Notes under the pieces: model-generated
Told to the model about the DNA's origin: nothing
Seen by the model: only the letters and a program-made list of their open reading frames with translations
Database searches by the model: none
Assembly (NCBI RefSeq): GCF_018336915.1
Contig: NZ_CP064923.1
Location: 3,390,001 to 3,422,000, forward strand
From: Acaryochloris marina S15
Lineage (GTDB): Bacteria; Cyanobacteriota; Cyanobacteriia; Thermosynechococcales; Thermosynechococcaceae
DNA length: 32,000 nt
Reading direction: 5' to 3'
Position numbers and translations under genes: made by a program
In this document: one piece after another, positions 1-18,356 of the stretch
Numbering within the stretch: the stretch's first letter is position 1
How the letters are laid out: each line of letters starts with the position of its first letter

Positions 1-140
1 TCCTTGGTTATCTACAATTTAGGCTCTATAGATGGGACTGAACGTGACAGTTATCACGGGTTTTCATTGTTCTATGTCATGCTGCTGCCGTACATCGAAA
101 AAATTCGGCATTATAAAGAGGCAGTCACCTCTTCGCCCTA

Positions 141-2147
141 ATGACAGCTTTTGACCTCCATGCTCCATTTGTCCCTAAAGGTGATCAACCCCAAGCCATT
201 GAGAAACTGACCGCTCTCCTTCAATCTGGCCATTCTAGGCAAACTTTGCTGGGCGCTACGGGTACGGGTAAGACCTTCACGATGGCTAAGGTGATTGAAG
301 AGATTGGTAAACCCACGCTAATCCTGGCCCATAACAAAACGCTAGCTGCGCAGCTCTGTAACGAAATCCGTTCCTTTTTTCCCAACAATGCAGTTGAGTA
401 TTTCATCAGCTATTACGACTATTACCAGCCTGAAGCCTATATTCCGGTCACAGATACCTTTATTGAAAAGACAGCTGCCATCAATGAAGAAATTGATATG
501 CTGCGGCATTCCGCGACACGATCGCTATTTGAACGTCAGGATGTCATTGTGGTGGCATCAATCAGCTGTATTTACGGTTTGGGTATCCCTGCTGAGTATC
601 TCAAGGCCTCAATCCCCCTCAAAGTTGGAGCTGAAGTTGATCAGCGGCAATTGCTGAGAAGTCTGGCAGCCGTGCAATATACCCGCAATGATGTGGACTT
701 AGGGCGGGGGCGATTTCGAGTCAAAGGAGATGTTCTGGAGATTGGTCCAGCCTATGAAGACCGGATTATTCGGGTGGAGTTTTTTGGGGATGAGATCGAT
801 GCCATTCGCTATGTCGATCCCGTTACTGGAGCAACATTACAGAGTTTGGAAGGACTGAATGTTTATCCTGCCCGCCACTTTGTAACGCCAACAGAACGAT
901 TGGAAATGGCAGTTGAAGCCATTGATGAGGAGAGAAAAGCACAGGTCGAACATTTAGAAACGACCGGGAAACTTTTGGAAGCTCAGCGCCTCAACCAACG
1001 GGCTCGCTACGATCTAGAGATGCTGAGAGAAGTTGGGTATTGCAATGGAGTAGAAAACTATTCTCGTCATCTGGCTGGACGGGAAGCAGGGGCTCCACCT
1101 GAGTGTTTGGTGGATTATTTTCCTCAGGATTGGTTGTTAATCGTAGATGAGTCTCATGTATCGGTCCCCCAAATTCGGGCCATGTATAACGGCGATCAGG
1201 CTCGCAAGAAAGTTCTGATTGATCATGGTTTTCGTCTACCCAGTGCGGCAGACAATCGCCCCCTTAAGTCCGAAGAATTTTGGCAAAAAGTTAACCAGTG
1301 TGTGTTTGTGTCCGCTACTCCAGGGCAGTGGGAAATAGAGTTATCAGAAAATCGGGTAGTGGAGCAAGTTATTCGACCGACGGGGGTAATCGATCCAGAA
1401 ATTTTTGTCCGTCCGACAACTGGCCAAGTGGATGATTTACTAGCTGAGATTCATGAGCGAGTCAGTCGCCAAGAACGGACTTTGATCACCACCTTAACCA
1501 AACGGATGGCAGAGGACCTGACGGAATACTTTGAAGAGCGAGGCGTGCGAGTCCGATATCTGCATTCGGAGATTAATGCCATTCAACGTATCGAAATTCT
1601 TCGGGATTTACGCCAGGGAGTATTTGATGTCTTAGTTGGGGTCAATTTATTGCGAGAGGGGTTGGATTTACCTGAAGTTTCTCTTGTAGCCATCTTAGAT
1701 GCTGATAAAGAAGGGTTCCTGAGAGCTGAGCGTTCTCTGATTCAAACCATTGGTCGAGCCGCTCGCCATGTCCGAGGTCAAGCCATTCTCTATGCTGACA
1801 ATCTGACGAATAGCATGGAAAGGGCTATTTCCGAAACTGAGCGGCGTCGGACCATTCAGCTTGCCTATAATGAAAAGCATGGCATCACTCCACAACCGGT
1901 CAAAAAAGGATCTGATAATGCGATTTTGGCCTTTTTGGAGGTCTCCCGCCGCCTCAATACCCAAGAACTTGAGGATGCCTATGAACAGGCAGATGATCTA
2001 CCCTTGGAGAGTGTGCCAGAGTTGATTACCCAATTGGAGGCAAAGATGAAGGAATCAGCTAAAAATCTGGAGTTCGAAGAAGCTGCAAAGTATCGAGATC
2101 GCATCAAGAACCTGAGATCTAAACTCTTAGGTCAAAAGTCTCCTTGA
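141..2147 (+). CDS. uvrB: Excinuclease ABC subunit B (UvrB)
   Basis: 668-aa ORF. It has N-terminal [11 protein letters not shown], Walker [10 protein letters not shown], a DESH box (IVDESHV), helicase C-terminal motifs, and a C-terminal UVR motif ([15 protein letters not shown]). Confidence 0.97.
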
Positions 2148-2424
2148 TCCCCTTGCCCTTTCTTTGGGCAATATCATCTTAGGTCTGCTTTAAGTCCATC
2201 CTTTTTTATGAGGTCTCGATCTGCTAGGAACTCTGGCATTTCATGAAATAATACAAGCAGCCACTCTAGCTCAAGATTTTCATTCGATTTCTCCATACAT
2301 CGCTTTTTAGTATCCTTTCTCGTCCTAATACCTGCAAATCTCACCCGAAGTTCTCCTTTATATCTTTTTATCAGTATCGATATTGGCCAAACTTTCAAGC
2401 CGATCATGAACTAAGACGATAACT

Positions 2425-4563
2425 GTGTTATTCGAACAAACAACTGTCGGTGAGTTTTTGCAGCAGACATTAGTCTGTCAAGCTGACACTCCCATTCAAG
2501 AAATATTAGATATACTCCAGCATCAAAGTTCTGCATCTCCAGTTGCTCAGTCTGAGGATGAGTCTGGCGATGGGGTCGATCTATCCCAATTAGTGGTGGT
2601 TAATGCACAGCAGCAACCCACTAGTCTCATTCCCCTAGCGCAATTTATTCATTTATTTATTACTGAGCAAAAGTCCCCTGACGCTGTTTCTCCTCAGCAG
2701 CCGATTGGAGAATGGGGCGATTTACACAATCAACCCTTGCAGCAGGTAGCGGTAACGAACTCTCTCAAGCAATTTTGGCAATATTTACAAACTTTTTCCC
2801 AAGATCTCAGCTTGTCTTGGGCCATTGTTGAGGATGAAACCGGCAAATATTTGGGGTTATTGGATACGCCTAAGTTAATTCAATTCCTGGCCCATCATGC
2901 CCCCTTGAGTGTTGCGATCAAGTTTTCCTCGGATTTAAAAAGTTCACTTTCACCTGCCTTAGAGATATCCGATACACCACCCGCCTCAACAGAGTCATTG
3001 CCCCCTCAAGATTCAATCTCTGCCGCTGCTCCATTGAGTGCCGAACTATTGGCTGAAATTAGCCATGAACTCAAATCTCCCCTCACGGCAATTCTGAGTT
3101 TGTCCAATGTTCTGAGTCATCAGGGCATTCAGAATTTATCTGAGCGGCAGTTGCAATATGTGCAGTTGATTCATCAGAAAAGCCAGCATCTGATGGGTAT
3201 CCTCAATACGTTACTGGACTTAACTCAACTTCCTGTCCAAGTTCAGCCTGAAGCACAAACAGCTGTTGATATTGATTCGCTGTGTGACGATGCGATCGCA
3301 CAAGCGAAACGATACTACCAACTGGAAGAAGGCACAGCGAATCAGGCTTCTCTCATCATTCGTCGGCATCCCCAGGGAGTCCTCGGCTCGATCACAAGTG
3401 ATGAGCTGAAATTACGCCAAATCCTGATACATCTTTTGCACAACGCTTTAGGAGCGACTCAAGGGCAATCCTCCATCGAACTGGGAGTTAAGCAGTGGCA
3501 AGGGTGGACGATCTTTACCATTTCCGACCAGGGTGCTCCAATTCCCCACCTACAGCAGCCCCTTATCTTTCAAATCCCCCAAACTTGGACGATTCCAGAC
3601 CAAGACATTCTCGGTAAAACAGGGCTAGGATTGGTGCTGGCCCATCGATTAGCAGAACAGATGTCAGGGGATATTTCTTTTATCTCTGGACCGACTCAGG
3701 GCAATACCTTCTCCTTGTATGTGCCTCCAGACCCTCTTCAAAGACAGCAGACTAAAACCACCCAAGGTTTAGTTCTTCTGATTGCCACAAATCCCAATCT
3801 AATTGAACAAGTGAGTCAGTATCTGTCTGATCAATCTTTACAAGTTGTCGTGGCCCGTTCAGAGCCAGAAGTCGCTCAGAAAATCGCCTTATTCAAGCCT
3901 CAAGCCGTTATCCTACAAACTCTGCTTACCACTGGCTCAGGGTGGGATATTCTTTCACTCCTTCAACAGCGAGATAGGGATTGTCCCATCTTACTGATAG
4001 GAAGCACCGATGACTGTCTACGTACTACTGATAGTGTAGATGGCTGCCTAACCTTACCCGAACTTCAACCCGGCTTGGCACAATGGTTAGAAACTTGCTT
4101 AAAAGCCAAAATTTCAACCTCTGGTTCTACCCCTAAGCAGAAACACCTCGCCCCCTCTAACTCTCCTAAAGCGCAAAAATTAACCGTTCTCCATCTAGAC
4201 GGCAATCTAGATCAATTCGGCAATACCTTACCCATTGATATTAGTCACTCGCTGTATGAACATCAGTGGAGAGTGATATCGACCACAACTTTAGATGAAG
4301 CTGAGTTATTAGTAGATATTTGGCAGCCCGATATCATTCTCTATACAGATGATGATTCTGCTCCCTTCTTGAACATGGCCGCAGAATCTCCCTTAGTCTC
4401 CTTCCCCTTTGTTATTCTTCACCCTGAAGTCCGGCAGATAGCCCTTGAGCGGGGAGACCTGGAGGTCTTTTCTCATGCAAACATAACCACACTTTCGAAC
4501 TCTGAACTATCAGAAGTATCGTCACTGCTAGAAATACTCAACCACTCCACCGCAGCCGAGTAG
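2425..4563 (+). CDS. Sensor histidine kinase: CBS-pair-like N-terminus, HisKA, HATPase_c, two C-terminal pseudo-receiver domains
   Basis: 712-aa ORF with a GTG start. H-box is AEISHELKSPLTAI (His214), N-box is LIHLLHNALGAT, and the G2 box is GKTGLGLVLAHRLAEQMSGDISF. Two CBS-like segments lie in aa ~8-160. Two receiver-like folds (aa ~448-560 and ~586-700) have Gln498 and Tyr640 where the phospho-acceptor Asp should be. Confidence 0.8.
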   Translation: MLFEQTTVGEFLQQTLVCQADTPIQEILDILQHQSSASPVAQSEDESGDGVDLSQLVVVNAQQQPTSLIPLAQFIHLFITEQKSPDAVSPQQPIGEWGDLHNQPLQQVAVTNSLKQFWQYLQTFSQDLSLSWAIVEDETGKYLGLLDTPKLIQFLAHHAPLSVAIKFSSDLKSSLSPALEISDTPPASTESLPPQDSISAAAPLSAELLAEISHELKSPLTAILSLSNVLSHQGIQNLSERQLQYVQLIHQKSQHLMGILNTLLDLTQLPVQVQPEAQTAVDIDSLCDDAIAQAKRYYQLEEGTANQASLIIRRHPQGVLGSITSDELKLRQILIHLLHNALGATQGQSSIELGVKQWQGWTIFTISDQGAPIPHLQQPLIFQIPQTWTIPDQDILGKTGLGLVLAHRLAEQMSGDISFISGPTQGNTFSLYVPPDPLQRQQTKTTQGLVLLIATNPNLIEQVSQYLSDQSLQVVVARSEPEVAQKIALFKPQAVILQTLLTTGSGWDILSLLQQRDRDCPILLIGSTDDCLRTTDSVDGCLTLPELQPGLAQWLETCLKAKISTSGSTPKQKHLAPSNSPKAQKLTVLHLDGNLDQFGNTLPIDISHSLYEHQWRVISTTTLDEAELLVDIWQPDIILYTDDDSAPFLNMAAESPLVSFPFVILHPEVRQIALERGDLEVFSHANITTLSNSELSEVSSLLEILNHSTAAE

Positions 4564-4594
4564 GAGCCGCAAGTTATTTTGTAATCAAGGGAGA

Positions 4595-6187
4595 TTACTG
4601 GAAGCTTTCTGGGGATTCTGATGGAGGCGGTGTTGAGAAATCAGGCCGAGCAAAGGGGTCGAACGGAGATGGCTCTGGGCTGGGAGCCAGGCTGTCAGGA
4701 TAGGAGTCTATTGGCGCTTGAAGAGTAGGATCCGGGCCTAGGGAATCAGGACTAAGAGGGACGGAGTCCTGAAGGGTGGGATCTGGCCCAATATCACCCT
4801 GATCAAACTGAGGATCAACCGTTGGTTCTTCTAAAGTTGAGGGAATGGGGGACTCAAGAGGTGTTTCAATCGGAGTGGGCAAAGTTTCTAATTCCCTTCT
4901 GGTCGTCCCTGGCTTAGGTAGAAAATCTTCATTTTGAACCGGGGCAGCCTTTGCAGGCACTTGCGGGTTCGCGAACTGATTCTGGTAATGAAACCGTAGC
5001 AACAGGCCAAAGGCAATTCCCACAACACCTGAGAGCACTGAACACACGATTAATGCTCGGAAGGGAAATCTGGGAGGCGCGGAATAAGGTTGGAGACGAG
5101 TGGTTGACACAGTCTGGCTGGGCTCCTGGCTAGGGACTGTTGATTCTGAAAGTGTTGTCGGAAGATCCTCAGTCTCAGGGGCTATAGATAATTGCTCTGA
5201 AGGGTAAGGAATTGCTGGGCCTGAAGGTTCTGAGGCTGGAGGTTCTGAGGCTGGAGGAGGAGAGGTCTCTAGAAGAGAAGAGTCTATTGAGGATACAGGT
5301 TTCGCAGTTAGGGAAGGGGAAGCTGCGCCTATGTTACCCGATTCTGTTGGGAATGATACAGGGGGAGAAGGTGCCTTGGGTAGGAGTTTCATCCACTCTG
5401 AGATAGATTGAGGGCGATGCTGAGGTTGCATCGCCATTCCCCGTAGCAGGGCAACAATCGTTGCCTGGCTTAGGTCTGGGTGATGCATTTCCAAGCGAAT
5501 ATGTTGCCGCTGGGAAGCTGCTATCGGCATTTGCCCCATCACCAAGGTGTATAAGGTTGCGGCTAATCCATAGATATCGGTTGTAACGGTTTGTTGACCT
5601 TGAGCGGATTCAGGTGCTGCATAGGCATGAACCAGAGGAGGAGGCAAACTAGGGTTGCTGGGTTGCCAAACCCAATTCACAAGCATCGGATGATCAGTAT
5701 GGGGAGGGTCAACAACATTTTTCGGTTGAACATCTCCATGCCGAAGCTGCTGCTGATGCGCTTGGTTCAAGCCGTTAGCAATTTGGGTGATTTGGGCAAT
5801 CGCCTCCGCTTCTGATAGGGGCTGATTTTTTCCATTTATGGCCCAGGTCTGTTCTGGTAGCTTGTCCCTGACCAGAAAGGGGAGAACCGAATCTACAAAA
5901 ACGTCTCGGATGGGTTCTAGGGAAGGATGTTTTAAGCGCTGCCAAGCTTGAGCTTCTTGTATGAAAGCATCGCGATGTAGGAGGATTTTTTTAGGGTGTT
6001 GACGGGACGGATTAAGGGTATTGATCAGAACAGGCTGCTGACTAGGTAAATGAGTGCCCTCATAGGTTAGCTGCAAGCCCTGATGCCTGACCAGTTGCTC
6101 TAAACGATACGTTCCTTTTTGTAAAAGTGTTCCGAGGGGAAGCAAAACCATTGTTGGCAGAGGGGGGCGCATGGTAGCTAACGGCAA
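4595..6187 (-). CDS. Membrane-anchored Ser/Thr protein kinase-like protein (predicted pseudokinase) with Pro-rich C-terminal region
   Basis: 530-aa ORF. The kinase fold is recognisable from FIQEAQAWQRLKHPS, LRHGDVQPKN, AYAAPE, TDIYGLAATLYTLVMGQMP and HRPQSISEW. However, the Gly-loop is degenerate (VRHQGLQ), VAIK is replaced by VLIN, and DFG is replaced by NWV. There is one TM helix (ALIVCSVLSGVVGIAFGLLL) followed by a Pro/Ser/Glu-rich tail. Confidence 0.75.
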   Translation of the reverse strand: MPLATMRPPLPTMVLLPLGTLLQKGTYRLEQLVRHQGLQLTYEGTHLPSQQPVLINTLNPSRQHPKKILLHRDAFIQEAQAWQRLKHPSLEPIRDVFVDSVLPFLVRDKLPEQTWAINGKNQPLSEAEAIAQITQIANGLNQAHQQQLRHGDVQPKNVVDPPHTDHPMLVNWVWQPSNPSLPPPLVHAYAAPESAQGQQTVTTDIYGLAATLYTLVMGQMPIAASQRQHIRLEMHHPDLSQATIVALLRGMAMQPQHRPQSISEWMKLLPKAPSPPVSFPTESGNIGAASPSLTAKPVSSIDSSLLETSPPPASEPPASEPSGPAIPYPSEQLSIAPETEDLPTTLSESTVPSQEPSQTVSTTRLQPYSAPPRFPFRALIVCSVLSGVVGIAFGLLLRFHYQNQFANPQVPAKAAPVQNEDFLPKPGTTRRELETLPTPIETPLESPIPSTLEEPTVDPQFDQGDIGPDPTLQDSVPLSPDSLGPDPTLQAPIDSYPDSLAPSPEPSPFDPFARPDFSTPPPSESPESFQ

Positions 6188-6369
6188 GGAGGAGGGTTAG
6201 ATCATGAAGATGCTTGTAAAATTCCTTAGGTTCCTGGCTAATTATTGTTTCCCTGAACCCTAAACCTATTCCGTCAAGTATCTTCAAACTGTAATGTGTC
6301 TCACAATCGGGGCTGAGAGTTAGCCAAAAAAGAGGTTGAGAACCGCTTGTAGAGAGACATTCAGTCTAA

Positions 6370-7278
6370 TTAGATGATGCCTAATTTCTCTAGTATGGGT
6401 CGTGTGGAGACCACATGCTTTTCTAGCCCAAGTTTCTGCGGTTCAATCCCTAAAGCCAAACCGACTAACTGAGGTAAATGCAAAACAGGCAAGCCTAGCT
6501 TGGTATTAATGGATTTTTCAACTTCAGGTTGACGAGAATCTAAATTCAGATGACAGAGGGGACAAGGGGTCACCAAGCAGTCAGCTCCAGCTGCAATTGC
6601 GTCCTGAATTCTACCTCCCGCCATGGCAAAGGACTGGGGGGTGGCATAGCTAGCGAGGGGCCAACCACAACATTGGGTGCGACCCGAGTAGTAGATTGGC
6701 GTAGCATCGAGGGCCAGAAACACATTTTCCATGGAAGAAGGGTGAATTGGATCGTCGAAGGGGAGACTCTGTTGGGCTCTGAGAAGATAGCAACCATAAA
6801 AAGCCGCACACTTTAATCCGCTGAGTTTACGCTTGACTTGAAGGGAAAGGGCTTCTAAGCCATAATCTCCGACCAAAGCCCACAGGAGATGCTTGACTTC
6901 AGTACTGCCTTGATAGGGAGAACAATGTTGTTCGGACAACAAGCTATTGATCTGATCAAAATACTCAGGGTTACTCTCTTTGGCGTCTTTCAATCGCTCA
7001 TCGACATGACCAATCACTCCTTGGCAGGTACTGCAATGGGTGAGGAGGGGTAAATTGAGCTGTTCGGCTAGGGCAATATTGCGGGCATTAACGGTATCTT
7101 CGAGTAATTGCGAATCTTCTTTAAAGGTGCCAGACCCACAACAGGCCGCTTTCTTCAATTCAATGAGTTTAATCCCTAAGGCCTGGGCAATTTCCTGAGT
7201 TGACATGTATAGTTCTCGACAAGCGCCTTGAGCGACACATCCTGGGAAGTATGCATATTGGAGTGTTGGGACCGACAT
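6370..7278 (-). CDS. Heterodisulfide reductase subunit B-like / CCG-domain Cys-rich protein (type-E succinate dehydrogenase SdhE/HdrB-like family)
   Basis: 302-aa ORF with two CCG motifs (KKAACCGSG and GRTQCCGWP) and accompanying Cys clusters (FPGCV, HCSTCQG, FYGC, TPCPLCH). This pattern is typical of HdrB/GlpC-like proteins. Confidence 0.8.
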   Translation of the reverse strand: MSVPTLQYAYFPGCVAQGACRELYMSTQEIAQALGIKLIELKKAACCGSGTFKEDSQLLEDTVNARNIALAEQLNLPLLTHCSTCQGVIGHVDERLKDAKESNPEYFDQINSLLSEQHCSPYQGSTEVKHLLWALVGDYGLEALSLQVKRKLSGLKCAAFYGCYLLRAQQSLPFDDPIHPSSMENVFLALDATPIYYSGRTQCCGWPLASYATPQSFAMAGGRIQDAIAAGADCLVTPCPLCHLNLDSRQPEVEKSINTKLGLPVLHLPQLVGLALGIEPQKLGLEKHVVSTRPILEKLGII

Positions 7279-7312
7279 CTGATGAATTACTCGCTGTTAC
7301 TGAGCCTTTGCT

Positions 7313-7382
7313 AGAGCAACGCTAGCATGTTGGTCTGAGAATTCGGCTTACCTGTGATTGAACATTACAAAACGGTGAAGTC
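7313..7382. repeat. Left copy of the direct repeat flanking the LRR-Roc-COR gene
   Basis: agagcaaCgctagc-N11-agaattcggCttacctgtgattgaacattacaaaacggtgaaGtc matches 10991..11060. The match is 13/14 in the first block, then an 11-nt variable block, then 43/45 in the core. Weaker similarity continues on both sides. Confidence 0.85.
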
Positions 7383-7453
7383 TTTTTGCCTGAAGGCACA
7401 GGTATTTCAATGTTTCAATTGGTCATATTGAAAGTTCGCAGAATTTCCATTAC

Positions 7454-10400
7454 TTACAAGCGTTTATCCTCCCGGAGCTTGTCCAGTTGGCCTCGGAAGT
7501 GTCCCTGCAATCCTTCGATCGATTCATATTCCTTGTAAAAGTGGCTTAAATTACTAAGCTTATCTTTGAAGTCACGCAGAGAAATAAGATCATCAACATT
7601 GACATCACTGGTTGAAACCGTGGTCTTCCGGAAGTAGGTATAGATCAGCGGTTTCTTAGTCTTCTTGAAGGTTTTGTATGCAACGTCAAATTCTTCCTCT
7701 GTGTATTTACCTGTTTTAGTCTTGAACAAGCTGACGAAAATGTCGCAGTGTCGAATTTTTTGGTTATATTCATTCTGGAGTCGGGTTGTCGACATGGCAT
7801 CAAGGAAGTTTTCCCAGCGGATAACTTCTAAGTAGATGCCTTGTTTGCGTAGACGGTCATTCTGCTGGCGAAAATATAGATCGAAAGCGTCGCGATCTTC
7901 GCGAAGCTCAGCTGAGGACGCTAGGAAGATCCGAATCGTCTTTTCCTTCACAGTATCCGCCGACTTAGATTGATTTGATTCTTCAGGTGTTTCTATCTCA
8001 CTATTGTCTTGAGGTAGCTCTTGTTTTGCTCTCGCCAACCATTGTTCTAGATTCATGCCATCCAGAAGTTCTAGCACGCTGACATCATGGTAGTCAGGTG
8101 GATTGGGGCACTCAATGGATGGTTTGCCTCTACTTTTCCGTTCAATTAATTTTTTCTGCTCGAACATTGCTGGTTCTGTTAGGTTCATGCAGGTTTCACA
8201 GATGCAAGGCACCCATTTACTGACTTTGTCTTTGAGTCCTTGGAAGCTGTCGTTTAGTGCATCAAGTTCACTGGCAATAGTGCTGAGCAGCGATTTTTTT
8301 TCTGGACCACGGCTGCGGAGAATAATTTCATTACCTTTTTCGGCTGTCACCACTAGCATCTTTGTTTCACCATGCTCGAATAAGGCACCCTGCAACCAAC
8401 ATAGATTCGGCTGCTTTACAAAACGGTGCACTCGAACGATCAGTCGGCTTACCAGGCCCCGAGGTAGAAACTCGTAGCGGTAGGTCAACATCAGATCGCC
8501 ACTCCTGGCCCAATTGTCTAGCTCTGAAGGCTTTGAAGGTGACAAGTGTTGTGGAACCAGCCATGTCTCTTTGTTCATATCCGGCAGCCGATAACATAGC
8601 TCGAAACGGACCATGAGGGCACGCAACTCTATTTCCTTATCCGCGTAGCCTTTTTTGGACCACAGACGATCGCAATCATCCAGGGTAAAGCGACCTTGCT
8701 GGGATTTGACATTTTCGTCGTCAAGGATACGAAATACTGCATCTGTCATCCACTGGTTCTGTAAAAATATAGTCCGTCGGAGTTCCCGTGGTTCCTGAAA
8801 GTGTAGGAACACTCCCAGGTCATGCAGGTACTGGCTTAGCTTTAGGGCCTTATCGAGATCTGCTTCAAGATGACCTGCATAGACTGTGAAGTAGTTATCC
8901 AGTGAGATATAGGGCTGGGTCTTTGCCAATTCCTTCAATTCATCGCGAATGGCAACCCATTTAGCTGGTACATCTTCACCAATATGTGGCAATTTCTGAA
9001 TGTAGTATTCTACCGCTTGGCGCAGTTTATCCGCCGCACATGGATGTTCCAGATTGCCCCGATGGAACTCCTCTACGTTGGGAAAGCGCCCTCTGATGCC
9101 CACCTCGTCGATCTGTTTACTGCGTCCGCCTTTCTCATTTTGAAAAATTAGTAGGGGACTAGCTGCGCTAAGGGTTTCAACTACCTCCAGCCAGAACTTA
9201 AAACCTTCGTCATAGACTGATTTGTGATCACTGCGGGTGTCATCGACCAATACATACAAGGAACGCTTTGTGAGAAAGAACTGATGGGTCGCATGATAAA
9301 TCTGCTGACCGCCAAAGTCCCAGGCATTAAGTCGAAACTTGCGTCCATTAGACATTGAGAACTCATGACGGTGGATATCGATGCCACGGGTTGTTTCGTC
9401 TTCGTTAGGCAGTCCTAATTCGGGCAGAAACATACGACGCAGAATGCTAGTTTTTCCAGCCCCACCCTCGCCAACAATTAGTAGTTTGGCTTCAAACAGC
9501 CGATCTACCCCCTGCGCTTCAACCTCATGAAAGTAATTGAGTACTGCCTCCGGCCCCTGCTTTACGATTTCCGGCGAGGGATGTGTTAGCGGACAATCTT
9601 CGACATAGATACCTACTCCCCGCCATGTTGCTTGGGACCAATGGATCGGTCGTTTGGCTAAGACCCACGATTTTAAAGGTGATAGATCTACCACGTTTGT
9701 CTCAGCAATGTTCAGTGTCACGAGTGGAAGCTGTGCTAATGGAGCAACCGTCGTTATCTGTTTATTTGAATTTAGATGTAGATCGTTGAGAGCTGTTTGG
9801 TGTTGACCAATGGCAATGACAACTGCATCACCCACATTGTTGTTACTCAGATTGAGTGACGAGAGCTGTTGGAGGTTCTCTGCGATGGCCCGCGCCCCGT
9901 CATCACCCACTTTGTTGTTTCTCAGATTGAGTGACGAGAGCTGTTGAAGGTTCTCTGCGATGGCCCGCGCCCCGTCATCACCCACATTGTTGTTTCTCAG
10001 ATTGAGTGACGAGAGCTGTTGGAGGTTCTCTGCAATGGCCCGCGCCCCGTCATCACCCACTTTGTTGCCACTCAGATCAAGGGACGAGAGCTGTTGGAGG
10101 TTCTCTACGATGGCCCGCGCCCCATCATCGCCCACTTCGTTGAAACTCAGATTGAGTGACGAGAGCTGTTGGAGGTTCTCTGCAATGGCCCGCGCCCCGT
10201 CATCACCCACATTGTTGTTACTCAGATTGAGTGACGAGAGCTGTTGGAGGTTCTCTGCGATGGCCCGCGCCCCATCATCGCCCACTTCGTTGAAACTCAG
10301 ATTGAGTGACGAGAGCTGTTGGAGGTTCTCTGCAATGGCCCGCGCCCCGTCATCACCCACTTCGTTGTCACTCAGATCAAGTGACGAGAGCTGTTGGAGG

Positions 10401-10885
10401 TTCTCTGCGATGGCCCGCGCCCCATCATCGCCCACTTCGTTGAAACTCAGATTGAGTGACGAGAGCTGTTGGAGGTTCTCTGCGATGGCCCGCGCCCCGT
10501 CAGCGCCCACTTCGTTGTCACTCAGATCAAGTGACGAGAGCTGTTGGAGGTTCTCTGCGATGGCAGTGATGTCTGTATCCTGCAGGCTGAGGGACCAAAA
10601 GGTGAGAGTTTGCAACCGATTGAGTCGCAATAGTTCAAGGGGGAGACTAGATAACTGGGTGGTAAGTTGGAATACAACGCGCCCCTGAAACTCCTTTGGC
10701 CAATTGTCCATTGATGGTGAAAGGCTAACTTCTGGTCCAAAGAGGGCTAGGTCAGTCCGATGTTCATTGCTGAGCCGCATTAGTAGATCGGGCAATTCAT
10801 CTGGATTTATGCGCTGCAGCCCAGTTTCTCCAGTCATATTAGGTACTCCCAGCTTGTCCATCGGCTTTTTTTGGGTATTGCCCAC
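7454..10885 (-). CDS. ROCO-family multidomain protein: LRR - Roc GTPase - COR - C-terminal TIR-like domain
   Basis: Uninterrupted 1143-aa ORF. It has ten 25-aa LRR units (ENLQQLSSLxLSxNxVGDDGARAIA), a P-loop (GEGGAGKTS) and switch II (WDFGGQ). COR hallmarks are VPAKWVAIRDEL..PYISLDNYF, LSQYLHDLGVFLHF and FELCYRL..WLVPQHL. The C-terminal pattern IRIFLASSAELREDRDAF..CDIFVSLF..GKYTEEEF..PLIYTYF resembles TIR/DUF4062-type domains. Confidence 0.9.
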   Translation of the reverse strand: MGNTQKKPMDKLGVPNMTGETGLQRINPDELPDLLMRLSNEHRTDLALFGPEVSLSPSMDNWPKEFQGRVVFQLTTQLSSLPLELLRLNRLQTLTFWSLSLQDTDITAIAENLQQLSSLDLSDNEVGADGARAIAENLQQLSSLNLSFNEVGDDGARAIAENLQQLSSLDLSDNEVGDDGARAIAENLQQLSSLNLSFNEVGDDGARAIAENLQQLSSLNLSNNNVGDDGARAIAENLQQLSSLNLSFNEVGDDGARAIVENLQQLSSLDLSGNKVGDDGARAIAENLQQLSSLNLRNNNVGDDGARAIAENLQQLSSLNLRNNKVGDDGARAIAENLQQLSSLNLSNNNVGDAVVIAIGQHQTALNDLHLNSNKQITTVAPLAQLPLVTLNIAETNVVDLSPLKSWVLAKRPIHWSQATWRGVGIYVEDCPLTHPSPEIVKQGPEAVLNYFHEVEAQGVDRLFEAKLLIVGEGGAGKTSILRRMFLPELGLPNEDETTRGIDIHRHEFSMSNGRKFRLNAWDFGGQQIYHATHQFFLTKRSLYVLVDDTRSDHKSVYDEGFKFWLEVVETLSAASPLLIFQNEKGGRSKQIDEVGIRGRFPNVEEFHRGNLEHPCAADKLRQAVEYYIQKLPHIGEDVPAKWVAIRDELKELAKTQPYISLDNYFTVYAGHLEADLDKALKLSQYLHDLGVFLHFQEPRELRRTIFLQNQWMTDAVFRILDDENVKSQQGRFTLDDCDRLWSKKGYADKEIELRALMVRFELCYRLPDMNKETWLVPQHLSPSKPSELDNWARSGDLMLTYRYEFLPRGLVSRLIVRVHRFVKQPNLCWLQGALFEHGETKMLVVTAEKGNEIILRSRGPEKKSLLSTIASELDALNDSFQGLKDKVSKWVPCICETCMNLTEPAMFEQKKLIERKSRGKPSIECPNPPDYHDVSVLELLDGMNLEQWLARAKQELPQDNSEIETPEESNQSKSADTVKEKTIRIFLASSAELREDRDAFDLYFRQQNDRLRKQGIYLEVIRWENFLDAMSTTRLQNEYNQKIRHCDIFVSLFKTKTGKYTEEEFDVAYKTFKKTKKPLIYTYFRKTTVSTSDVNVDDLISLRDFKDKLSNLSHFYKEYESIEGLQGHFRGQLDKLREDKRL
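7457..7939 (-). other. TIR-like (STIR-superfamily, DUF4062-like pattern) domain plus C-terminal helical tail, aa 983-1143 of the ROCO protein
   Basis: Alternating strand and helix segments: IRIFLASS / YLEVIRWE / CDIFVSLF / PLIYTYF. An acidic EEE (aa 1063-1065, nt 7691-7699) follows the third strand. The assignment rests on remembered family patterns, not on a search. Confidence 0.6.
8051..8992 (-). other. COR (C-terminal of Roc) domain, aa ~632-945
   Basis: PAKWVAIRDELKELAKTQPYISLDNYF, YLHDLGVFLHFQ, IFLQNQWMTDAVFRILD and FELCYRLPDMNKETWLVPQHL. It ends in a Cys motif, CICETC..(26 aa)..C. Confidence 0.8.
8993..9490 (-). other. Roc (Ras of complex proteins) GTPase domain, aa ~466-631
   Basis: G1 is GEGGAGKTS (nt 9446-9472), switch I is TTRGIDI, and G3 is DFGGQ. 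The G4 NKxD motif is not canonical (FQNEKGG / SKQID). Confidence 0.85.
9686..10654 (-). other. Leucine-rich repeat region (RI-like 25-aa units followed by degenerate units), aa ~78-400
   Basis: The LxxLxLxxNxVG periodicity is visible directly in the translation. Confidence 0.9.
9831..10580. repeat. Ten in-frame 75-bp tandem repeats (coding, LRR units)
   Basis: Period of exactly 75 nt. Unit 10131-10205 is identical 75/75 to unit 10281-10355. Blocks 10281-10430 and 10431-10580 form a near-identical 150-bp super-unit. Confidence 0.95.
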
Positions 10886-10990
10886 CCTCTATTTCTCGAT
10901 GTGTTTTATCCATTACCATCAATATTTCTTGACCTTCTCAATACAATATCTCAGCCGAATCAGTGACATTTACGCATTTATCTCTATGCC

Positions 10991-11060
10991 AGAGCAATGC
11001 TAGCCCTATGACACCAGAATTCGGGTTACCTGTGATTGAACATTACAAAACGGTGAAATC
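10991..11060. repeat. Right copy of the direct repeat flanking the LRR-Roc-COR gene
   Basis: Matches 7313..7382 in the same orientation. It lies 64 bp upstream of the pip ATG and about 105 bp upstream of the ROCO gene start. Confidence 0.85.
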
Positions 11061-11123
11061 AGTGGTCCTGAGTCGGGAGACCTTTTATCTTGAAGGACAA
11101 GAGATAGCTGTTGGACCTCCAAA

Positions 11124-12074
11124 ATGCGCGAACTTTACCCAGTCATCACCCCTTATACAACGGGTAAACTCCAAGTTTCTGATCTGCATACCCTCCATTA
11201 CGAAGAAGTGGGAAATCCCCAGGGGAAACCAGCTATATTTCTGCACGGGGGACCCGGGGGCGGCATTGATCCGGTCTATCGACAGTATTTTGATCCACAG
11301 GAATGGCGGTTAGTGCTGTTTGACCAGCGGGGTTGCGGGCAAAGCACCCCCCATGCAGAGCTAAAAGAAAACACCACCTGGGATTTAGTCAGGGATATCG
11401 AAACCCTGCGTCAGCATCTCGACATTGATCAGTGGGTAGTCTTTGGAGGGAGTTGGGGCAGTACTTTAGCCCTGGCCTACAGCCAGACCCATCCTGAATC
11501 CTGCAAGGGACTCATCTTGCGGGGGATATTTATGTTGCGTCATCAAGAACTGCAATGGTTCTACCAAGAAGGAGCCAGCAACATTTTCCCAGATGCCTGG
11601 GAAGCCTATCTCCAGCCCATTCCTCTGGAAGAGCGTCAGGATTTAATCAGTGCCTATTACCGCCGACTCACAAGTAACGATCCAAACATTCAACTGGAAG
11701 CGGCCAAAGCCTGGTCCGTCTGGGAGGCCACAACGAGCAAACTGTTGCCCGATCCTGAATTGCAAGAAAAATGTGGTGAAGACACCTTTGCCACGGCCTT
11801 TGCTCGGATTGAATGTCACTATTTCATGAACAAGGGCTTTTTAGACACAGAAGATCAGCTGATGCGGGGATGCGATCGCATCCAGCATCTCCCCATCGTT
11901 ATTGTTCAAGGCCGTTATGATGTCGTTTGCCCCGTCATTTCAGCCTGGGAACTCCATCAGCAACTTCCTCAATCAGAGCTGCAAATCATTGCCGATGCCG
12001 GCCATTCCATTACAGAACCTGGCATTCGCAATGCTTTGATCGAAGCAACCGACCGCTTTGCTCAAATTCCATGA
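11124..12074 (+). CDS. pip: Prolyl aminopeptidase (proline iminopeptidase), alpha/beta hydrolase
   Basis: 316 aa. It has HGGPGGG, the nucleophile elbow GGSWGSTLALAY, and C-terminal GRYDVVCP..AGHS. Confidence 0.93.
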   Translation: MRELYPVITPYTTGKLQVSDLHTLHYEEVGNPQGKPAIFLHGGPGGGIDPVYRQYFDPQEWRLVLFDQRGCGQSTPHAELKENTTWDLVRDIETLRQHLDIDQWVVFGGSWGSTLALAYSQTHPESCKGLILRGIFMLRHQELQWFYQEGASNIFPDAWEAYLQPIPLEERQDLISAYYRRLTSNDPNIQLEAAKAWSVWEATTSKLLPDPELQEKCGEDTFATAFARIECHYFMNKGFLDTEDQLMRGCDRIQHLPIVIVQGRYDVVCPVISAWELHQQLPQSELQIIADAGHSITEPGIRNALIEATDRFAQIP

Positions 12075-12322
12075 CATGCCTTGGCTAAGACTTAATTTAT
12101 GCTCCAGCAAGAAAACAAGATCGATGCTTTCAGAGGGGCGGTTTCAGATTACTATGGAAGGAATGGCTGAAACCCTGAAAGACTGGATCAGACATTCCCT
12201 GGCCTTGATCTTTGAGCAAGGACATTGAAATATGCTCAGGGAAGGAAGTAAAGCATTTGGCCTCATTTGAAGCCGCATTTAACCTTCTGCTAGAGTCCGT
12301 AGTTTTAGAGAAAAGAGAACCC

Positions 12323-12568
12323 ATGAGTGAGTCGGAAATTTTTGGCAAAGTAAAAGATATTGTTGCCGAGCAATTAAGTGTTGATGCTGAAAAGGTAACG
12401 CCAGAAGCGAGCTTCCAGAACGATCTAGATGCTGACTCCCTGGATGTTGTGGAAATGGTGATGGCTCTAGAAGAAGAGTTTGATATCGAAATTCCAGACG
12501 AAGCAGCCGAAGAAATCCTTACGGTTCAAGCTGCTGTTAACTTTATCTCAAGCAAAGTAAAGGCTTAG
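12323..12568 (+). CDS. acpP: Acyl carrier protein
   Basis: 81 aa counted from the internal ATG at 12323. It has the phosphopantetheine-attachment motif [10 protein letters not shown]. The upstream part of the 118-aa ORF has no ACP counterpart. Confidence 0.95.
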
Positions 12569-12582
12569 CAATCCTGATAGAC

Positions 12583-12610
12583 CGTGTTGCATGCTCTAGC
12601 ATGCAACACG
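12583..12610 (+). promoter_or_regulatory. Perfect 12-bp stem / 4-nt loop hairpin in the acpP-fabF spacer
   Basis: cgtgttgcatgc-tcta-gcatgcaacacg. No U-tract follows it, so it is a candidate partial terminator or mRNA-stability/processing element. Confidence 0.5.
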
Positions 12611-12660
12611 ATTGCTAACCCCTAAATATTTTCATCCTATGCTGATCACATGTGACCATC

Positions 12661-13914
12661 ATGACTAACCTAGAGCCTAAGCGCGTTGTAATTACAGGGC
12701 TGGGGGCCATCACTCCGTTAGGGAATACCCTCTCTGAATACTGGGATGGGTTGCTTGCGGGTCGCAGTGGAATTGGCCCCGTCACCCGGTTTGATGCAGC
12801 TAAGCATGCCTGCCAAATTGCCGGAGAAGTGAAAGGCTTCGATCCACAAGACTATATGGATCGTAAAGACGCCAAACGCATGGACCGTTTTGCTCAATTT
12901 GCGGTGTCTGCCAGCAAACAAGCCCTAGCTGATGCTAACTTCACCATTGACGATACCAATGCAAACGATATCGGTATCATCATCGGCACCGGTATTGGGG
13001 GTCTAAAAGTTCTAGAGGATCAGCAGGAAATTTATCTCACCAAAGGGCCGGATCGCTGCAGCCCCTTTATGATTCCGATGATGATTGCCAATATGGCGGC
13101 AGGCTTAACAGCCATTCATGTGGGTGCTAAAGGTCCTAACTCCTGTTCAGTGACGGCCTGTGCTGCCGGGTCTAACGCCATTGGTGATGCCTTTCGCTTT
13201 GTCCAGAGGGGCTATACCAAAGCGATGATTTGTGGTGGCACCGAAGCTGCAGTGACTCCCTTATCCATGGCTGGATTTGCGGCCTGTCGAGCCCTCTCCA
13301 CCCGCAATGATGATCCCACAAAAGCCAGCCGCCCGTTTGATCGTGATCGGGATGGTTTTGTCCTGGGAGAAGGAGTTGGCATTCTCTTAATTGAAGAATT
13401 AGAGCATGCTCTAGCGCGAGGCGCCAAAATTTACGCCGAGCTGATTGGCTATGGGGTCACTTGCGATGCTCATCATATGACATCCCCCTCCCCTGGTGGC
13501 GTTGGCGCGGCCCGAGCCATTGAGTTATGCCTTAAAGACAGTAACTTGTCCCCTGACCAAATCAGCTATATCAATGCCCATGGCACCAGCACGAACGCCA
13601 ACGATACAACGGAAACAGCTGCAATTAAGCATGCAATCGGTGATAATGCTTACCGAGTAGCCATTAGTTCCACAAAATCGATGACGGGTCATTTACTGGG
13701 CGGGTCGGGTGGTATTGAAGCCGTAGCCACTGCCATGGCCATTGCCAATGATCAAGTCCCGCCGACAATTAACCTAGATAATCCTGACGAAGGATGCGAT
13801 TTAGACTATATTCCCCATACCAGCCGTAAATTAACGGTTGATGTTGCTCTTTCCAATTCCTTTGGTTTTGGCGGTCACAATGTCACCCTCGCCTTCCGAA
13901 AATATGCCGATTGA
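12661..13914 (+). CDS. fabF: 3-oxoacyl-ACP synthase II (KAS II)
   Basis: The ATG at 12661 gives MTNLEPKRVVITGLG. It has the active-site Cys (SVTACAAGSNAIG), the two His motifs (NAHGTSTNANDTTE and GHLLGGSGGIE), and C-terminal NSFGFGGHN. Confidence 0.95.
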   Translation: MTNLEPKRVVITGLGAITPLGNTLSEYWDGLLAGRSGIGPVTRFDAAKHACQIAGEVKGFDPQDYMDRKDAKRMDRFAQFAVSASKQALADANFTIDDTNANDIGIIIGTGIGGLKVLEDQQEIYLTKGPDRCSPFMIPMMIANMAAGLTAIHVGAKGPNSCSVTACAAGSNAIGDAFRFVQRGYTKAMICGGTEAAVTPLSMAGFAACRALSTRNDDPTKASRPFDRDRDGFVLGEGVGILLIEELEHALARGAKIYAELIGYGVTCDAHHMTSPSPGGVGAARAIELCLKDSNLSPDQISYINAHGTSTNANDTTETAAIKHAIGDNAYRVAISSTKSMTGHLLGGSGGIEAVATAMAIANDQVPPTINLDNPDEGCDLDYIPHTSRKLTVDVALSNSFGFGGHNVTLAFRKYAD

Positions 13915-13949
13915 TGTTGGATTTACTTGCCATGATGGCATTGATATTT

Positions 13950-13977
13950 GAGGCTTGTCTGTTCCAAGCCTCTTTTT
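13950..13977 (+). terminator. Rho-independent terminator after fabF
   Basis: Stem gaggctt / aagcctc, a 9-nt loop, then ttttt. Confidence 0.75.
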
Positions 13978-14061
13978 GACGCCCATAGAAAACATAGACA
14001 ACGTCGTTTTCTTGCCGCTTATTCCTTCTTGCCGTTCAGTAAATACTAAAAATTCAAGCTT

Positions 14062-16068
14062 ATGGTTGTTGCGACCCAATCCCTAGACGAACTTTGTATT
14101 AATGCAATTCGTTTCCTGGCCATTGATGCCGTCGAAAAAGCCAAATCGGGACACCCAGGTTTACCCATGGGTGCCGCTCCCATGGCCTATGTCCTTTGGG
14201 ACCGCATCATGCGGTTTAATCCCAAAAATCCTTATTGGTTTAACCGTGATCGGTTTGTGCTGTCCGCCGGGCATGGCTGCATGTTGCAGTATGCTCTTTT
14301 GCACCTGACGGGATTTAACAGTGTTTCCCTTGATGAAATCAAGAATTTCCGTCAGTGGGGTTCCAAAACCCCTGGACACCCTGAGAACTTTGAAACCCCT
14401 GGGGTTGAAGTCACGACAGGGCCTTTGGGACAAGGAATTTGTAATGCCGTGGGTTTAGCCATGGCCGAAGCCCACTTGGCTGCCAAGTTCAACAGACCCG
14501 AGCATACTCTCGTTGATCACTACTCCTACGCCATCTTGGGGGATGGTTGCAACATGGAAGGGGTTTCTGGTGAAGCCTGTTCCTTGGCGGGTCACTTGGG
14601 ATTGGGCAAGTTAATTGCCCTTTACGATGACAACCATATTTCCATTGATGGTTCCACAGATATTTCCTTTACAGAAGATGTGGGCAAGCGCTTTGAAGCC
14701 TATGGTTGGCATGTTCAGCATGTTGAGAATGGCAACACCGATTTAGACGGGATTCAGAAGGCCATTGAAGCGGCTAAAGCTGTAACCGATAAGCCTTCGC
14801 TGATTAAAGTGACGACCACCATTGGTTATGGATCCCCCAATCGGGCCGATACTGCTGGTATTCATGGTGCCGCTCTTGGGGATGCAGAGATTAAAGCCAC
14901 CCGAGAAAATCTTGGCTGGAATCATGAGCCCTTTGATATTCCTGCTGATGTCCTGTCTCATTGCCGCCAAGCAGTCGATCGAGGCGCTACGGCTGAATCA
15001 GAATGGGATGCAATCATGGCCTCCTATCGGACTAAATATCCAGCTGAAGCGGCAGAATTTGAGCGGATGGTGAAAGGAGAACTCCCAGCCAATTGGGATA
15101 AATCTCTACCCAGCTACACTCCAGCAGATAAAGGACTCGCCACACGAAAGCATTCTGAAATCACAATTAATGCTTTGGCCGGTGCAATTCCTGAGTTGAT
15201 TGGTGGATCCGCTGACCTAACCCACTCCAATCTGACCGAAATCAAAGGTTCAGGGAATTTCCAAAAGGGAGATTACAATAATCGCAACCTTCGATTTGGG
15301 GTACGTGAGCATGGCATGGGTGCCATCTGTAACGGGATTGCCTTACATAATTCCGGTTTAATTCCCTACTGCGCCACCTTCTTGGTGTTCGCAGACTATA
15401 TGAGAGCCGCCATTCGCCTCTCTGCCCTGGCAGAAGCGGGGGTTATCTACGTCATGACCCATGACTCCATTGGCTTAGGTGAGGATGGTCCAACTCACCA
15501 ACCCGTCGAAACGGTTGCCTCATTGCGAACAATTCCCAATTTAACGGTGATTCGACCAGCAGATGGTAACGAGGTTTCTGGAGCGTATAAAGTTGCGATC
15601 GCACATCGCAAATCCCCTACGCTCATTGCCTTCACTCGTCAGGCCCTCCCCAATTTGGCTGGCAGCTCCATTGATGCCGTAGCTAAGGGCGCTTACATCA
15701 TGTCTGATAGTGATGGCACGCCTGACATGATCATGCTGGCCACTGGCAGTGAAGTTCATCTTTGTGAGCAAGCGGCTGAGCAGCTTCGTTCCGAAGGCAA
15801 GAAGGTTCGAGTGGTTTCCATGCCCTCGTGGGAATTGTTCGAAGCCCAAACTCCTGAATATAAAGAGTCCGTTTTGCCCAAAGCAATCACCAAGCGTCTA
15901 TCGGTGGAAGCCGGAGCTGATTTCGGCTGGCATCGGTATATTGGCTTCGAAGGTCAAGCTATCAGCATTAACCGCTTTGGTGCCTCTGCTCCTGGCAATA
16001 CTTGCCTAGAACAGTTTGGCTTCACCGTTGAGAACGTTCTCGCGAAAGCCAAGGATCTGCTGAGCTAA
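14062..16068 (+). CDS. tkt: Transketolase
   Basis: 668 aa. It has the SGHPG and GDGCNMEG thiamine-diphosphate motifs, and conservation typical of transketolase runs along the full length. Confidence 0.97.
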
Positions 16069-16090
16069 GGTATTTCAATAATTTGGTTTG

Positions 16091-16124
16091 CAGTCCTCCT
16101 ATTTTTTAGGGGGACTGTTTTTTT
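16091..16124 (+). terminator. Rho-independent terminator after tkt
   Basis: 9-bp stem cagtcctcc / gggggactg (one G-U pair), a 9-nt loop, then ttttttt. Confidence 0.85.
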
Positions 16125-16259
16125 GTATATGGTTCGGCAGACCCACTCAATACAGGGTCAAGTGGCTTTTGCTCAACAAGCTCAGACTACATCGCATTCG
16201 AAATTGCCCCTGTATAATCGAACCAATCTTTGTCGATACCAAGACCCTAAAACGTTGGC

Positions 16260-17210
16260 ATGACTCTTAAACAAGGCATTGCCCAAACCACCTTAATACT
16301 GAGCCTTGGCCTATATATTTTCTATCTATGCCCCTTTATCAATCGCTCTTTCCCTTTGGCTTTAGGAATGGAGTTTTGGCCTTATGTTTGTGTGATTCCT
16401 TGTTTTGGTTTGGGATTTAGACTATTCCACCCAGATCTTCGGGGGCAGCGACTGGGACTCGGATTAGCATCGCTGTTGCTAGTACTCAGTTTTACCCCTT
16501 GGTTTCATTGGTTAGGAATGCCATCCATTGGCACAAAACCGGCAGGGTTGCGGATGATGTCTTATAACATCTGGACCCAAAATCAGGATTATGATGCCAT
16601 TCAACTATCTATTCAGCGAGAAAAGCCCGATATTCTTTTCTTAACAGAGATTACGCTGTCGGCCATGCGTGACTTGAAAAATCGATTGGAGTATCCCTAT
16701 AGCCAACGCTCCAATCGGGGGTCCAATGCCTTTTTTAGTCGCTACCCCATCCTCTCCACTACTCCGGAATATCCTAATGCGACAGACCATGGCCTTACTT
16801 TTAGCCTGGTTGCTCAAATTCAAACACCACAAGAGATACTGACAGTTGTAGGCATTCATCCCCCCATTCCTCTAACCCGTTCTTCGTTTGCAGTTCGCAA
16901 TCAGCAGTTTGAGCGTTTAGCTCCATTTATTCGACAAGTTCCCAATCGAGTCATCGTTCTGGGAGATTTCAATACGTCTCCCTGGTCGCCTTATTTCGAT
17001 CAGTTCTTACAGGAGGCAGATTTGTCTAGTGCAACCCGAGGACAGGGCATTTGGGCAACCTGGAGTTATGAATCCTCTTTGCCTCACTGGTTTGCCAAAA
17101 TCCCTATCGACCATGTTGCCAGTCGTGGGTTTGACTGCATTGACGCTTGGACAGGCCATGCCAATGGATCCGATCATCGACCTGTTATTGCGGAATTAAA
17201 GCCTATTTGA
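16260..17210 (+). CDS. Endonuclease/exonuclease/phosphatase (EEP) family protein with N-terminal TM helices
   Basis: 316 aa. Three hydrophobic N-terminal segments are followed by SYNIW, PDILFLTEI, LGDFNTSPWS, IDHV and SDHRPV. Confidence 0.8.
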   Translation: MTLKQGIAQTTLILSLGLYIFYLCPFINRSFPLALGMEFWPYVCVIPCFGLGFRLFHPDLRGQRLGLGLASLLLVLSFTPWFHWLGMPSIGTKPAGLRMMSYNIWTQNQDYDAIQLSIQREKPDILFLTEITLSAMRDLKNRLEYPYSQRSNRGSNAFFSRYPILSTTPEYPNATDHGLTFSLVAQIQTPQEILTVVGIHPPIPLTRSSFAVRNQQFERLAPFIRQVPNRVIVLGDFNTSPWSPYFDQFLQEADLSSATRGQGIWATWSYESSLPHWFAKIPIDHVASRGFDCIDAWTGHANGSDHRPVIAELKPI

Positions 17211-17234
17211 AATAACAGAAGGATTGAAAGTGAG

Positions 17235-18230: not shown

Positions 18231-18295
18231 TGCATTAGCCTTTTATAGGGTTAGGAACATCTAACCGCGATGTCTTCTACTGTAACGTTATCGGC

Positions 18296-18327
18296 AAAAA
18301 AAATTGGGGCGCTAGATAACGCCCCAA
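18296..18327 (-). terminator. Rho-independent terminator after petF
   Basis: On the minus strand the stem is ttggggcg / cgccccaa with an 8-nt loop, followed by uuuuuuuu (the plus-strand A-run at 18296-18303). Confidence 0.85.
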
Positions 18328-18356
18328 CCCATTAGCCACAAGCTGTAGCGTTGGAT

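Follow-up and report, generated by a model that had tools for sequence, protein, structure and literature searches.

Acaryochloris marina S15 carries a single ROCO gene between two divergently oriented neighbours, an HdrB-like gene and the prolyl aminopeptidase gene pip, and this ROCO gene is bracketed by two direct copies of a 77-nt intergenic element. The window in which we analysed the locus is a stretch of 32,000 nt (contig NZ_CP064923.1, positions 3,390,001 to 3,422,000 of the forward strand), and all positions below are counted from its first nucleotide. We consider it likely that homologous recombination brought in the ROCO allele from a divergent, unsampled Acaryochloris lineage that already carried the bracketed structure. 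A sequence-only reading of the same DNA had proposed a one-gene insertion at the repeated sequence. This proposal stood in part, since ROCO is inserted relative to the empty sites of relatives and one recombination junction maps to the repeat. The notion that a clean insertion of one gene created the duplication in this genome had to be given up, since the foreign DNA is a tract of ~4.4 kb in which ~650 nt belong to the HdrB-like gene and are 10% divergent.

Alignment of both copies to the empty sites fixed the duplicated segment at 77 nt in each copy (7306-7382 and 10984-11060), with the two copies in register and 3678 nt apart. When the copies are compared with each other, 18 of the first 21 positions are identical; there follow an unrelated block of equal length (11 nt, 7327-7337 versus 11005-11015, identical at 2/11 positions) and a core that matches at 43/45 positions, the mismatches being at 7347 and 7380. 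The same layout had been described from the sequence alone (13/14 for 7313-7326 versus 10991-11004, then 11 unrelated nucleotides, then a core of 43/45), and the distances to the start codons also lie near the values given there, as 28 nt separate the left copy from the HdrB-like ATG and 64 nt lie between the right copy and the pip ATG. A repeat search of the 32-kb window located the direct repeat at 7338-7393 and 11016-11071 (56 nt, 88%), and the 77-nt pair is the sole non-tandem direct repeat of at least 30 nt in it. The 32-mer TTACCTGTGATTGAACATTACAAAACGGTGAA occurs exactly twice in the window, at 7348 and 11026, with matches in 0 of 100 shuffles. ROCO is indeed the only gene between the copies, the rest being a 3' flank of 71 nt and a 5' flank of 98-146 nt. 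The weaker similarity that had been added to the repeat with some reserve (on the right to about 7401/11101, across an indel of 22 nt, and on the left over some 25 nt more) did not hold up, as its local alignment scores were equalled or beaten by 115-480 of 500 shuffles. The first nucleotide of the Logan contig L101 corresponds to window position 11028, within the 32-nt exact repeat; we read this start as the break of a short-read assembly at a two-copy repeat, a reading that rests on an assumed k-mer length of the assembler.

Homologues of the HdrB-like protein point to the genus Acaryochloris, and within it the empty site was found repeatedly. In 14 loci from nine relatives distributed across the HdrB tree (L001/L002, L004, L005-L007, L008, L013 from the complete MBIC11017 genome, L016, L096, L097 from the complete Moss Beach genome, and L098-L100), HdrB-like and pip stand next to each other in divergent orientation, and the spacer of 163-168 nt contains one element and no ROCO. 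This is the ancestral arrangement postulated from the sequence, with a spacer of ~163 bp instead of ~150 bp. The close relatives obtained by the pip search, namely Moss Beach, of which S15 has been described as the nearest relative (PMC9029297), the three Logan assemblies L098-L100, whose pip protein is identical to that of the window, and the 97% relative L096, all have the empty site. No relative has ROCO at this position, still less do all of them have it with both copies. Because the window is nested among empty-site lineages in a neighbour-joining tree of HdrB, one gain is far more parsimonious than at least four precise losses, and the empty site is the ancestral state. The converse history, in which ROCO and both copies are ancestral and deletions between the repeats removed the gene from the relatives, has in its favour that recombination within the core would yield exactly the observed empty site, left-copy-like leftward and right-copy-like rightward. 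However, these losses would have to be independent of one another, and the nearest strains are 10% different in the adjoining HdrB-like segment, which a simple deletion would not produce. Furthermore, the outgroup L096 shares the allele of the Moss Beach type, and no ROCO relative above 72% identity was found anywhere, other Acaryochloris included. We therefore regard this history as extremely improbable.

The evidence for an import comes from the distribution of differences along the locus. On both sides, the flanks in the window are 99.3-99.5% identical to Moss Beach and L098-L100, that is, to sister strains that lack ROCO. The differences from these close strains number 34-53 in 1-6589 and 62-68 in 11016-20900 (~0.5-0.7%), while 68-73 fall within 6590-7382. 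The dense run of differences begins at 6631, and 6631-7380 is ~10% divergent. Third codon positions hold 57 of the 65 differences in the HdrB-like gene, whose identity to Moss Beach is split into a recipient-type part (6370-6589, 99.5%) and a donor-type part (6631-7278, 90.0%). The donor-type markers reach 7380, which is 2 nt short of the insertion, and resume over 10986-11015 (12 of 32 positions), after which no position differs before 11246. Near-identical flanks joined to a contiguous tract of mainly synonymous divergence are thus both present, as an import demands. Besides ROCO, the foreign tract comprises the 5' two-thirds of the HdrB-like gene, the whole left copy and, from the right copy, the 32 degenerate nucleotides at its left end.

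The same comparison gives the direction of the transfer. The HdrB-like part of the tract has ~90% identity to alleles of the Moss type and of the MBIC type alike, and therefore the donor was a third lineage, an unsampled Acaryochloris. In the outgroup L096, the HdrB-like allele is of the Moss type (97.9%), and therefore the strain of the window is the recipient. As the left third of the right copy is of the donor type and already degenerate, the duplication must be older than the transfer and belong to the donor lineage, which would accordingly have had the same bracketed structure.

An alternative that has to be weighed here is an insertion in situ, in which an illegitimate event put ROCO into a Moss-type spacer and duplicated 77 bp, and a separate recombination replaced the 5' part of the HdrB-like gene. 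In its favour, an occupied site compared with an empty one has gained no gene other than ROCO, the two copies are exactly in register, and recombination tracts are common in this group, some regions of Moss Beach being closer to other strains than to S15 (PMC9029297). Nevertheless, we find it unlikely, because the donor-type markers run to within 2 nt of the boundary, where a donor with an empty site would have offered no homologous sequence in which a crossover could be resolved. In addition, the 12 differences from the Moss type among the 32 positions of the right copy's left third, in a place where the flanks differ by ~0.5%, are far too many for decay after the insertion.

The import that we favour may have proceeded as follows. 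The ancestral locus consisted of divergent HdrB-like and pip genes with a spacer of ~163 nt containing one conserved 77-nt element. In the unsampled lineage, here called lineage D, a foreign ROCO gene would have entered this spacer and the element would have been duplicated over 77 bp, so that both neighbours kept a core. This original duplication could go back to one illegitimate insertion event at staggered breaks that were then filled in, selection keeping the event that left a core on both sides. The redundant HdrB-proximal third of the right-hand copy would then have decayed, or may have been divergent from the outset. Later, the strain of the window would have gained the lineage D allele by homologous recombination, with the left crossover inside the HdrB-like gene (6590-6630) and the right crossover in or just past the 45-nt core of the right copy, within the region's most perfectly conserved stretch between diverged lineages. 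The right copy would consequently be a chimera, with its left third from the donor and its core native. Between lineages that are ~88% identical, the two longest runs of perfect identity in the HdrB-pip region (78 nt and 50 nt) adjoin each other and cover the element, and the 50-nt run coincides with the core of the right copy. The minimal efficient processing segment in Bacillus subtilis is >40 bp (PMC4824099), and both runs, as measured between sampled lineages, are above this length; the right crossover is bounded to 11016-11245.

The element itself proved to be specific to one place in one genus. The core 20-mer TGTGATTGAACATTACAAAA has three matches in 185,579 species genomes (one genome per species, the complete MBIC11017 included), with one copy in each genome, all upstream of HdrB-like in Acaryochloris. 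None was found in viral contigs or plasmids, and 78 HdrB-like loci of cyanobacteria other than Acaryochloris lack the motif upstream of the gene. These data bear on the possibility, raised in the sequence-only reading, that the core is a dispersed intergenic repeat occurring throughout the genome and brackets ROCO by coincidence. A 13-nt exact match inside ROCO (8416-8428) is the only further likeness to the core that could speak for it, whereas a dispersed repeat such as a miniature inverted-repeat transposable element or a repetitive extragenic palindrome should have many copies; the core has one in each of the three Acaryochloris species genomes, and its two copies in the window have no counterpart in shuffles. 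Coincidental bracketing is thereby refuted. The 13-nt piece (TTACAAAACGGTG) lies within the ROCO coding sequence, extends to 16/18 matches over 18 nt (8416-8433), has a BLAST E-value of 0.19 and is probably due to chance.

The left copy is identical at 74/77 positions to the element of MBIC11017, as compared with a divergence of 36% at four-fold degenerate sites. On the sense strand of HdrB-like, the conserved blocks are TTTGTAATGTTCAA, which contains a -10-like TAATGT with an invariant TAATG, then GAATTCT, and then a 6-7-6 palindrome in GCCAACATGCTAGCGTTGCTCTAGC. The element is kept with HdrB-like in RU_4_1 and IP29b_bin.137, in which pip is not adjacent. The element is most likely a genus-specific promoter, operator or leader of HdrB-like, and it possibly also serves as an upstream site for pip. 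As known operators, NtcA (GTA-N8-TAC), CRP (TGTGA-N6-TCACA) and HLR1 (consensus as quoted in PMC11633204) were compared with the core by eye and rejected, as the spacing or the half-sites misfit. That the right core agrees with MBIC11017 at 45/45 positions was also rejected as a sign of selection on the duplicate, because comparison with Moss Beach and L098-L100 identifies this core as the recipient's native copy; the identity therefore shows only the general conservation of the element. It had been suggested that ROCO now has the same upstream element as HdrB-like. This is true in part, but the HdrB-proximal 32 nt of the right copy differ from the Moss Beach element at 12/32 positions, and the spacing is not the same either, with 98-146 nt to the ROCO start codon versus 28 nt for HdrB-like.

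A number of points weigh against an import of this kind or against the role given to the element in it. The donor lineage is absent from the sampled genomes, and the presence of ROCO between two copies there is deduced solely from the donor-type left third of the right copy. To place the right crossover in the core, within its bounds of 11016-11245, one has to assume that the tail of the donor was as diverged as those of the other lineages. The origin of the 77-bp duplication from staggered breaks and fill-in is our best guess; a Campbell-type or site-specific origin is possible and would require a circle already carrying the element. The odd 11-nt block, of equal length in both copies and nearly without identity, is not accounted for by gradual decay, and no local template for it was found in the window. 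Position 10986 is A in the right copy and in the distant L005, L008 and RU_4_1, and T in the left copy, Moss Beach and MBIC11017; the right copy has the outgroup state here and not that of the window's left copy and MBIC11017, a single-site hint that its left third could be of older or different origin than the left copy. As for the function of the element, a scan for consensus promoters and terminators found no site in either copy, and Rfam gave no match at the gathering threshold or at E≤1. Covariation in the palindrome was likewise not detected, as the sole structure predicted by RNAalifold is a small hairpin at the palindrome, in which two changes are wobble-compatible and none gives compensatory support.

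No mobile-element machinery was found at the locus. Domain and profile searches of the window proteins detected no transposase or integrase inside or beside the ROCO unit, which bears out what had been said of the unit and its surroundings, and no tyrosine or serine recombinase in the 32-kb window. The sole mobile-element gene in the window encodes an IS5-like transposase (DUF772 and DDE_Tnp_1; 28159-29199, minus strand), 17 kb from the unit. There is no tRNA or tmRNA in the window, and the target is an intergenic element. The unit contains no remnants of HdrB-like or pip, for which reason a tandem duplication followed by replacement was rejected. A plasmid or phage source was rejected as well, as PLSDB and IMG/VR contain no copy of the unit or the element.

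These results also bear on a cassette that was mobilized in trans and has no integrase of its own, comparable to the cis-mobilizable elements (CIMEs), an established concept (PMC5704250). In such a case, the core would be an attachment site, and the unit would be excised as a 3678-bp circle and integrate site-specifically, rebuilding both control regions in the way that islands targeting tRNA genes restore the tRNA. Direct, attachment-site-like repeats derived from the target do bracket a single cargo gene here, and the element has a palindrome. An exchange inside AGAATTCGG (7338-7346 / 11016-11024) would also be in keeping with the mosaic, in which the left copy is ancestral on the left and variant on the right and the right copy the reverse. 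However, neither the unit nor the window encodes a recombinase other than the distant DDE transposase, no tRNA is present, and no viral or plasmid copy was found. In all 14 loci the site is empty, without other cargo there and without the unit at other sites, and the core is single-copy per genome. Moreover, the co-transferred divergent HdrB-like segment is explained by homologous and not by site-specific recombination. We consider such a cassette very unlikely. We give scant credence, too, to the specific proposal that the 45-nt core is a true attachment site by which an integrase-less, single-gene ROCO cassette of 3678 bp moved in trans and duplicated a divergent control region. If this were true, the neighbours and the cargo would all keep the element, and the cassette would be the counterpart, at a promoter region, of islands that reconstitute a tRNA.

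Among bacterial Roco proteins, the architecture in Chlorobium tepidum is LRR-Roc-COR. The ROCO protein of the window has the same order of LRR, Roc, COR-A and COR-B domains as bacterial Roco proteins (Pfam LRR_6 3.5e-46, Roc 2.8e-20, COR-A 1.4e-35 and COR-B 8.1e-28) and differs by an extra C-terminal domain (aa 982-1135); the likeness to Roco proteins covers the cargo gene only. The 100% match is P0121, annotated as 'COR domain-containing protein [Acaryochloris marina]'. Because the next best homologue is only 72% identical and relatives at 65-70% identity occur in other taxa (Thiodiazotropha, Thiosymbion and other marine cyanobacteria), the gene is, on these identities, taken to be foreign to the genus Acaryochloris. 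As a compositional outlier ROCO was rejected, since codon usage, G+C content at third codon positions and tetranucleotides are not outlying except in the tandem array of leucine-rich repeats; the codon and k-mer comparison that the sequence-only reading had recommended does not discriminate ROCO from its flanks and is uninformative on a foreign origin. The flanks of the closest ROCO homologue (L015; upstream flank only 288 nt long) showed no similarity and no bracketing repeat. The array within ROCO was counted as 10 overlapping 300-nt copies, or roughly 13 units, and a longer one is present in the 72% homologue L015 (415-1764), which suggests concerted evolution and a variable copy number of the LRR sensor domain. 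The C-terminal domain past COR-B (7454-7940) resembles the PADLOC candidate defence protein PDC-S60 over the first 164 positions of the latter (E 7.8e-13), which hints at a possible link between this Roco family and phage defence. In the literature, we found no paper linking Acaryochloris and Roco, and the genes of the locus go unmentioned in the oxygen-response transcriptome paper.

The features of the locus are compiled in the following table.

Features of the ROCO locus in window coordinates (a slash marks the junction between element and unit; E_L and E_R, left and right copies of the element)
Feature	Position	Strand	Remarks
HdrB-like / SdhE-like gene, two CCG domains, 302 aa	6370-7278	−	Pfam CCG; NCBIfam SdhE/HdrB-like below cut-offs
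Contiguous foreign tract, ~4.4 kb	6631-11015		left crossover 6590-6630, right crossover 11016-11245; relative to near-identical strains
E_L, complete 77-nt element	7306-7382		28-104 nt upstream of the HdrB-like ATG; donor-type, unique bases at 7347 and 7380; from alignments
45-nt core of E_L	7338-7382		contains the 32-nt exact repeat 7348-7379
Left junction	around 7368-7398		ACGGTGAAGTC / TTTTTGCC
Unique 3' flank of ROCO	7383-7453	−	no match in any fetched locus
ROCO gene, LRR - Roc - COR-A - COR-B - C-terminal domain	7454-10885	−	Pfam; start of the NCBI product (1127 aa) at 10837
Tandem array of 75-nt units (25-aa leucine-rich repeats) inside ROCO	9676-10650	−	identity among the units 88-93%
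Unique 5' flank of ROCO	10886-10983	−	no remnant of HdrB-like or pip, no match elsewhere
Right junction	around 10970-11000		CATTTAT / CTCTATGCCAGAGC
Left 32 nt of E_R	10984-11015		donor-type degenerate duplicate of the HdrB-proximal part: 18/21, then the replaced 11-nt block
45-nt core of E_R	11016-11060		recipient-type; identical to Moss Beach, L098, L100 and MBIC11017; probable right-crossover site
pip-proximal spacer ('tail')	11061-11123	+	single-copy, identical to Moss Beach
pip, prolyl aminopeptidase	11124-12074	+	TIGR01249, 443.7 bits versus a cut-off of 259.75; Pfam

In the surroundings, pip is followed by acpP, fabF and tkt, and a Ser/Thr kinase and a histidine kinase lie upstream in the window. 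The Ser/Thr kinase (4595-6187, minus strand, downstream of HdrB-like) gave moderate matches to the PD-T4-6 kinase models of PADLOC (best E 7.6e-26), which likely reflects generic kinase-domain similarity. The tkt gene (14284-15783) is somewhat denser in differences from Moss Beach (27 in 2007 nt, 1.3%, versus 0.3-0.9% in the neighbouring genes) and may be another small recombination patch. A second indel is found nearby, as the collinearity with Moss Beach ends near 16984. There, Exo_endo_phos directly adjoins moaA in the window and in L098-L100, and a glyoxalase gene and an AraC-type regulator stand beside Exo_endo_phos in Moss Beach, L096 and the MBIC-type L001. The HdrB-pip spacer itself is altered in two other relatives, in which HdrB-like and pip have become unlinked on the side of the element that faces pip. 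RU_4_1 (L009-L011) lacks pip, and a spacer of ~440 nt adjoins acpP, the element staying with HdrB-like. In IP29b_bin.137 (L003/L014), homology is lost within ~30 nt of the element's right edge; a synteny break that seemed to coincide with this edge was given less weight, as the alignment places it only somewhere within those ~30 nt rightward. The spacer thus appears to be a recurrent rearrangement point at which the element always stays with HdrB-like.

Taken together, the event looks like an ordinary recombination-mediated gain of an accessory gene, well supported and of modest novelty, and forms a new, well-resolved instance of its kind. It is a natural case in which an accessory signalling gene moved between diverged lineages of a cyanobacterial species complex, with empty and occupied sites, direction and both junctions mapped, and in which a short, highly conserved and presumably regulatory spacer probably served as one recombination arm. 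The duplicated core lets the gene sit in a shared divergent control region while neither neighbour loses its conserved core. The complete copy, the copy with the decayed proximal third and the empty-site strains also make up an allelic series for the role of the element. Current understanding is not overturned by this case, and its odd detail is a 77-bp target duplication without mobile-element machinery.

This detail sets the locus apart from several known systems that it resembles. As with the target-site duplications of insertion sequences and transposons, a target is duplicated as direct repeats around an insert. However, the duplication measures 77 bp here versus the usual 2-15 bp, no terminal inverted repeats join the two ends of the unit, and ROCO is the only gene in 7383-10983, so that no transposase is present; an insertion of this type was rejected on these grounds. 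With the CIMEs and other elements that have attL and attR sites and no integrase (PMC5704250), the locus shares target-derived direct repeats that bracket the cargo and a target function reconstituted on both sides. In contrast to them, the ROCO unit lacks a recombinase and a tRNA or gene-end target, and its site is single-copy, empty in all relatives and free of other cargo. Campbell-type integration by a single crossover also leaves a direct duplication around the insert with hybrid copies, which the mosaic here resembles, but it needs a circle already bearing the Acaryochloris-specific element; it could explain the spread of the structure and not the origin of the duplication. The import of accessory genes by allelic recombination, as in transformation-mediated locus replacement, has the same near-identical flanks with an adjoining, mostly synonymous tract and requires no mobile-element genes; its crossovers in conserved stretches probably have their match here. 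The present locus differs from it in that one homology arm would essentially be the 45-50-nt conserved, presumably regulatory core and not a gene, and in that the imported allele has an internal duplication of 77 bp of the spacer.

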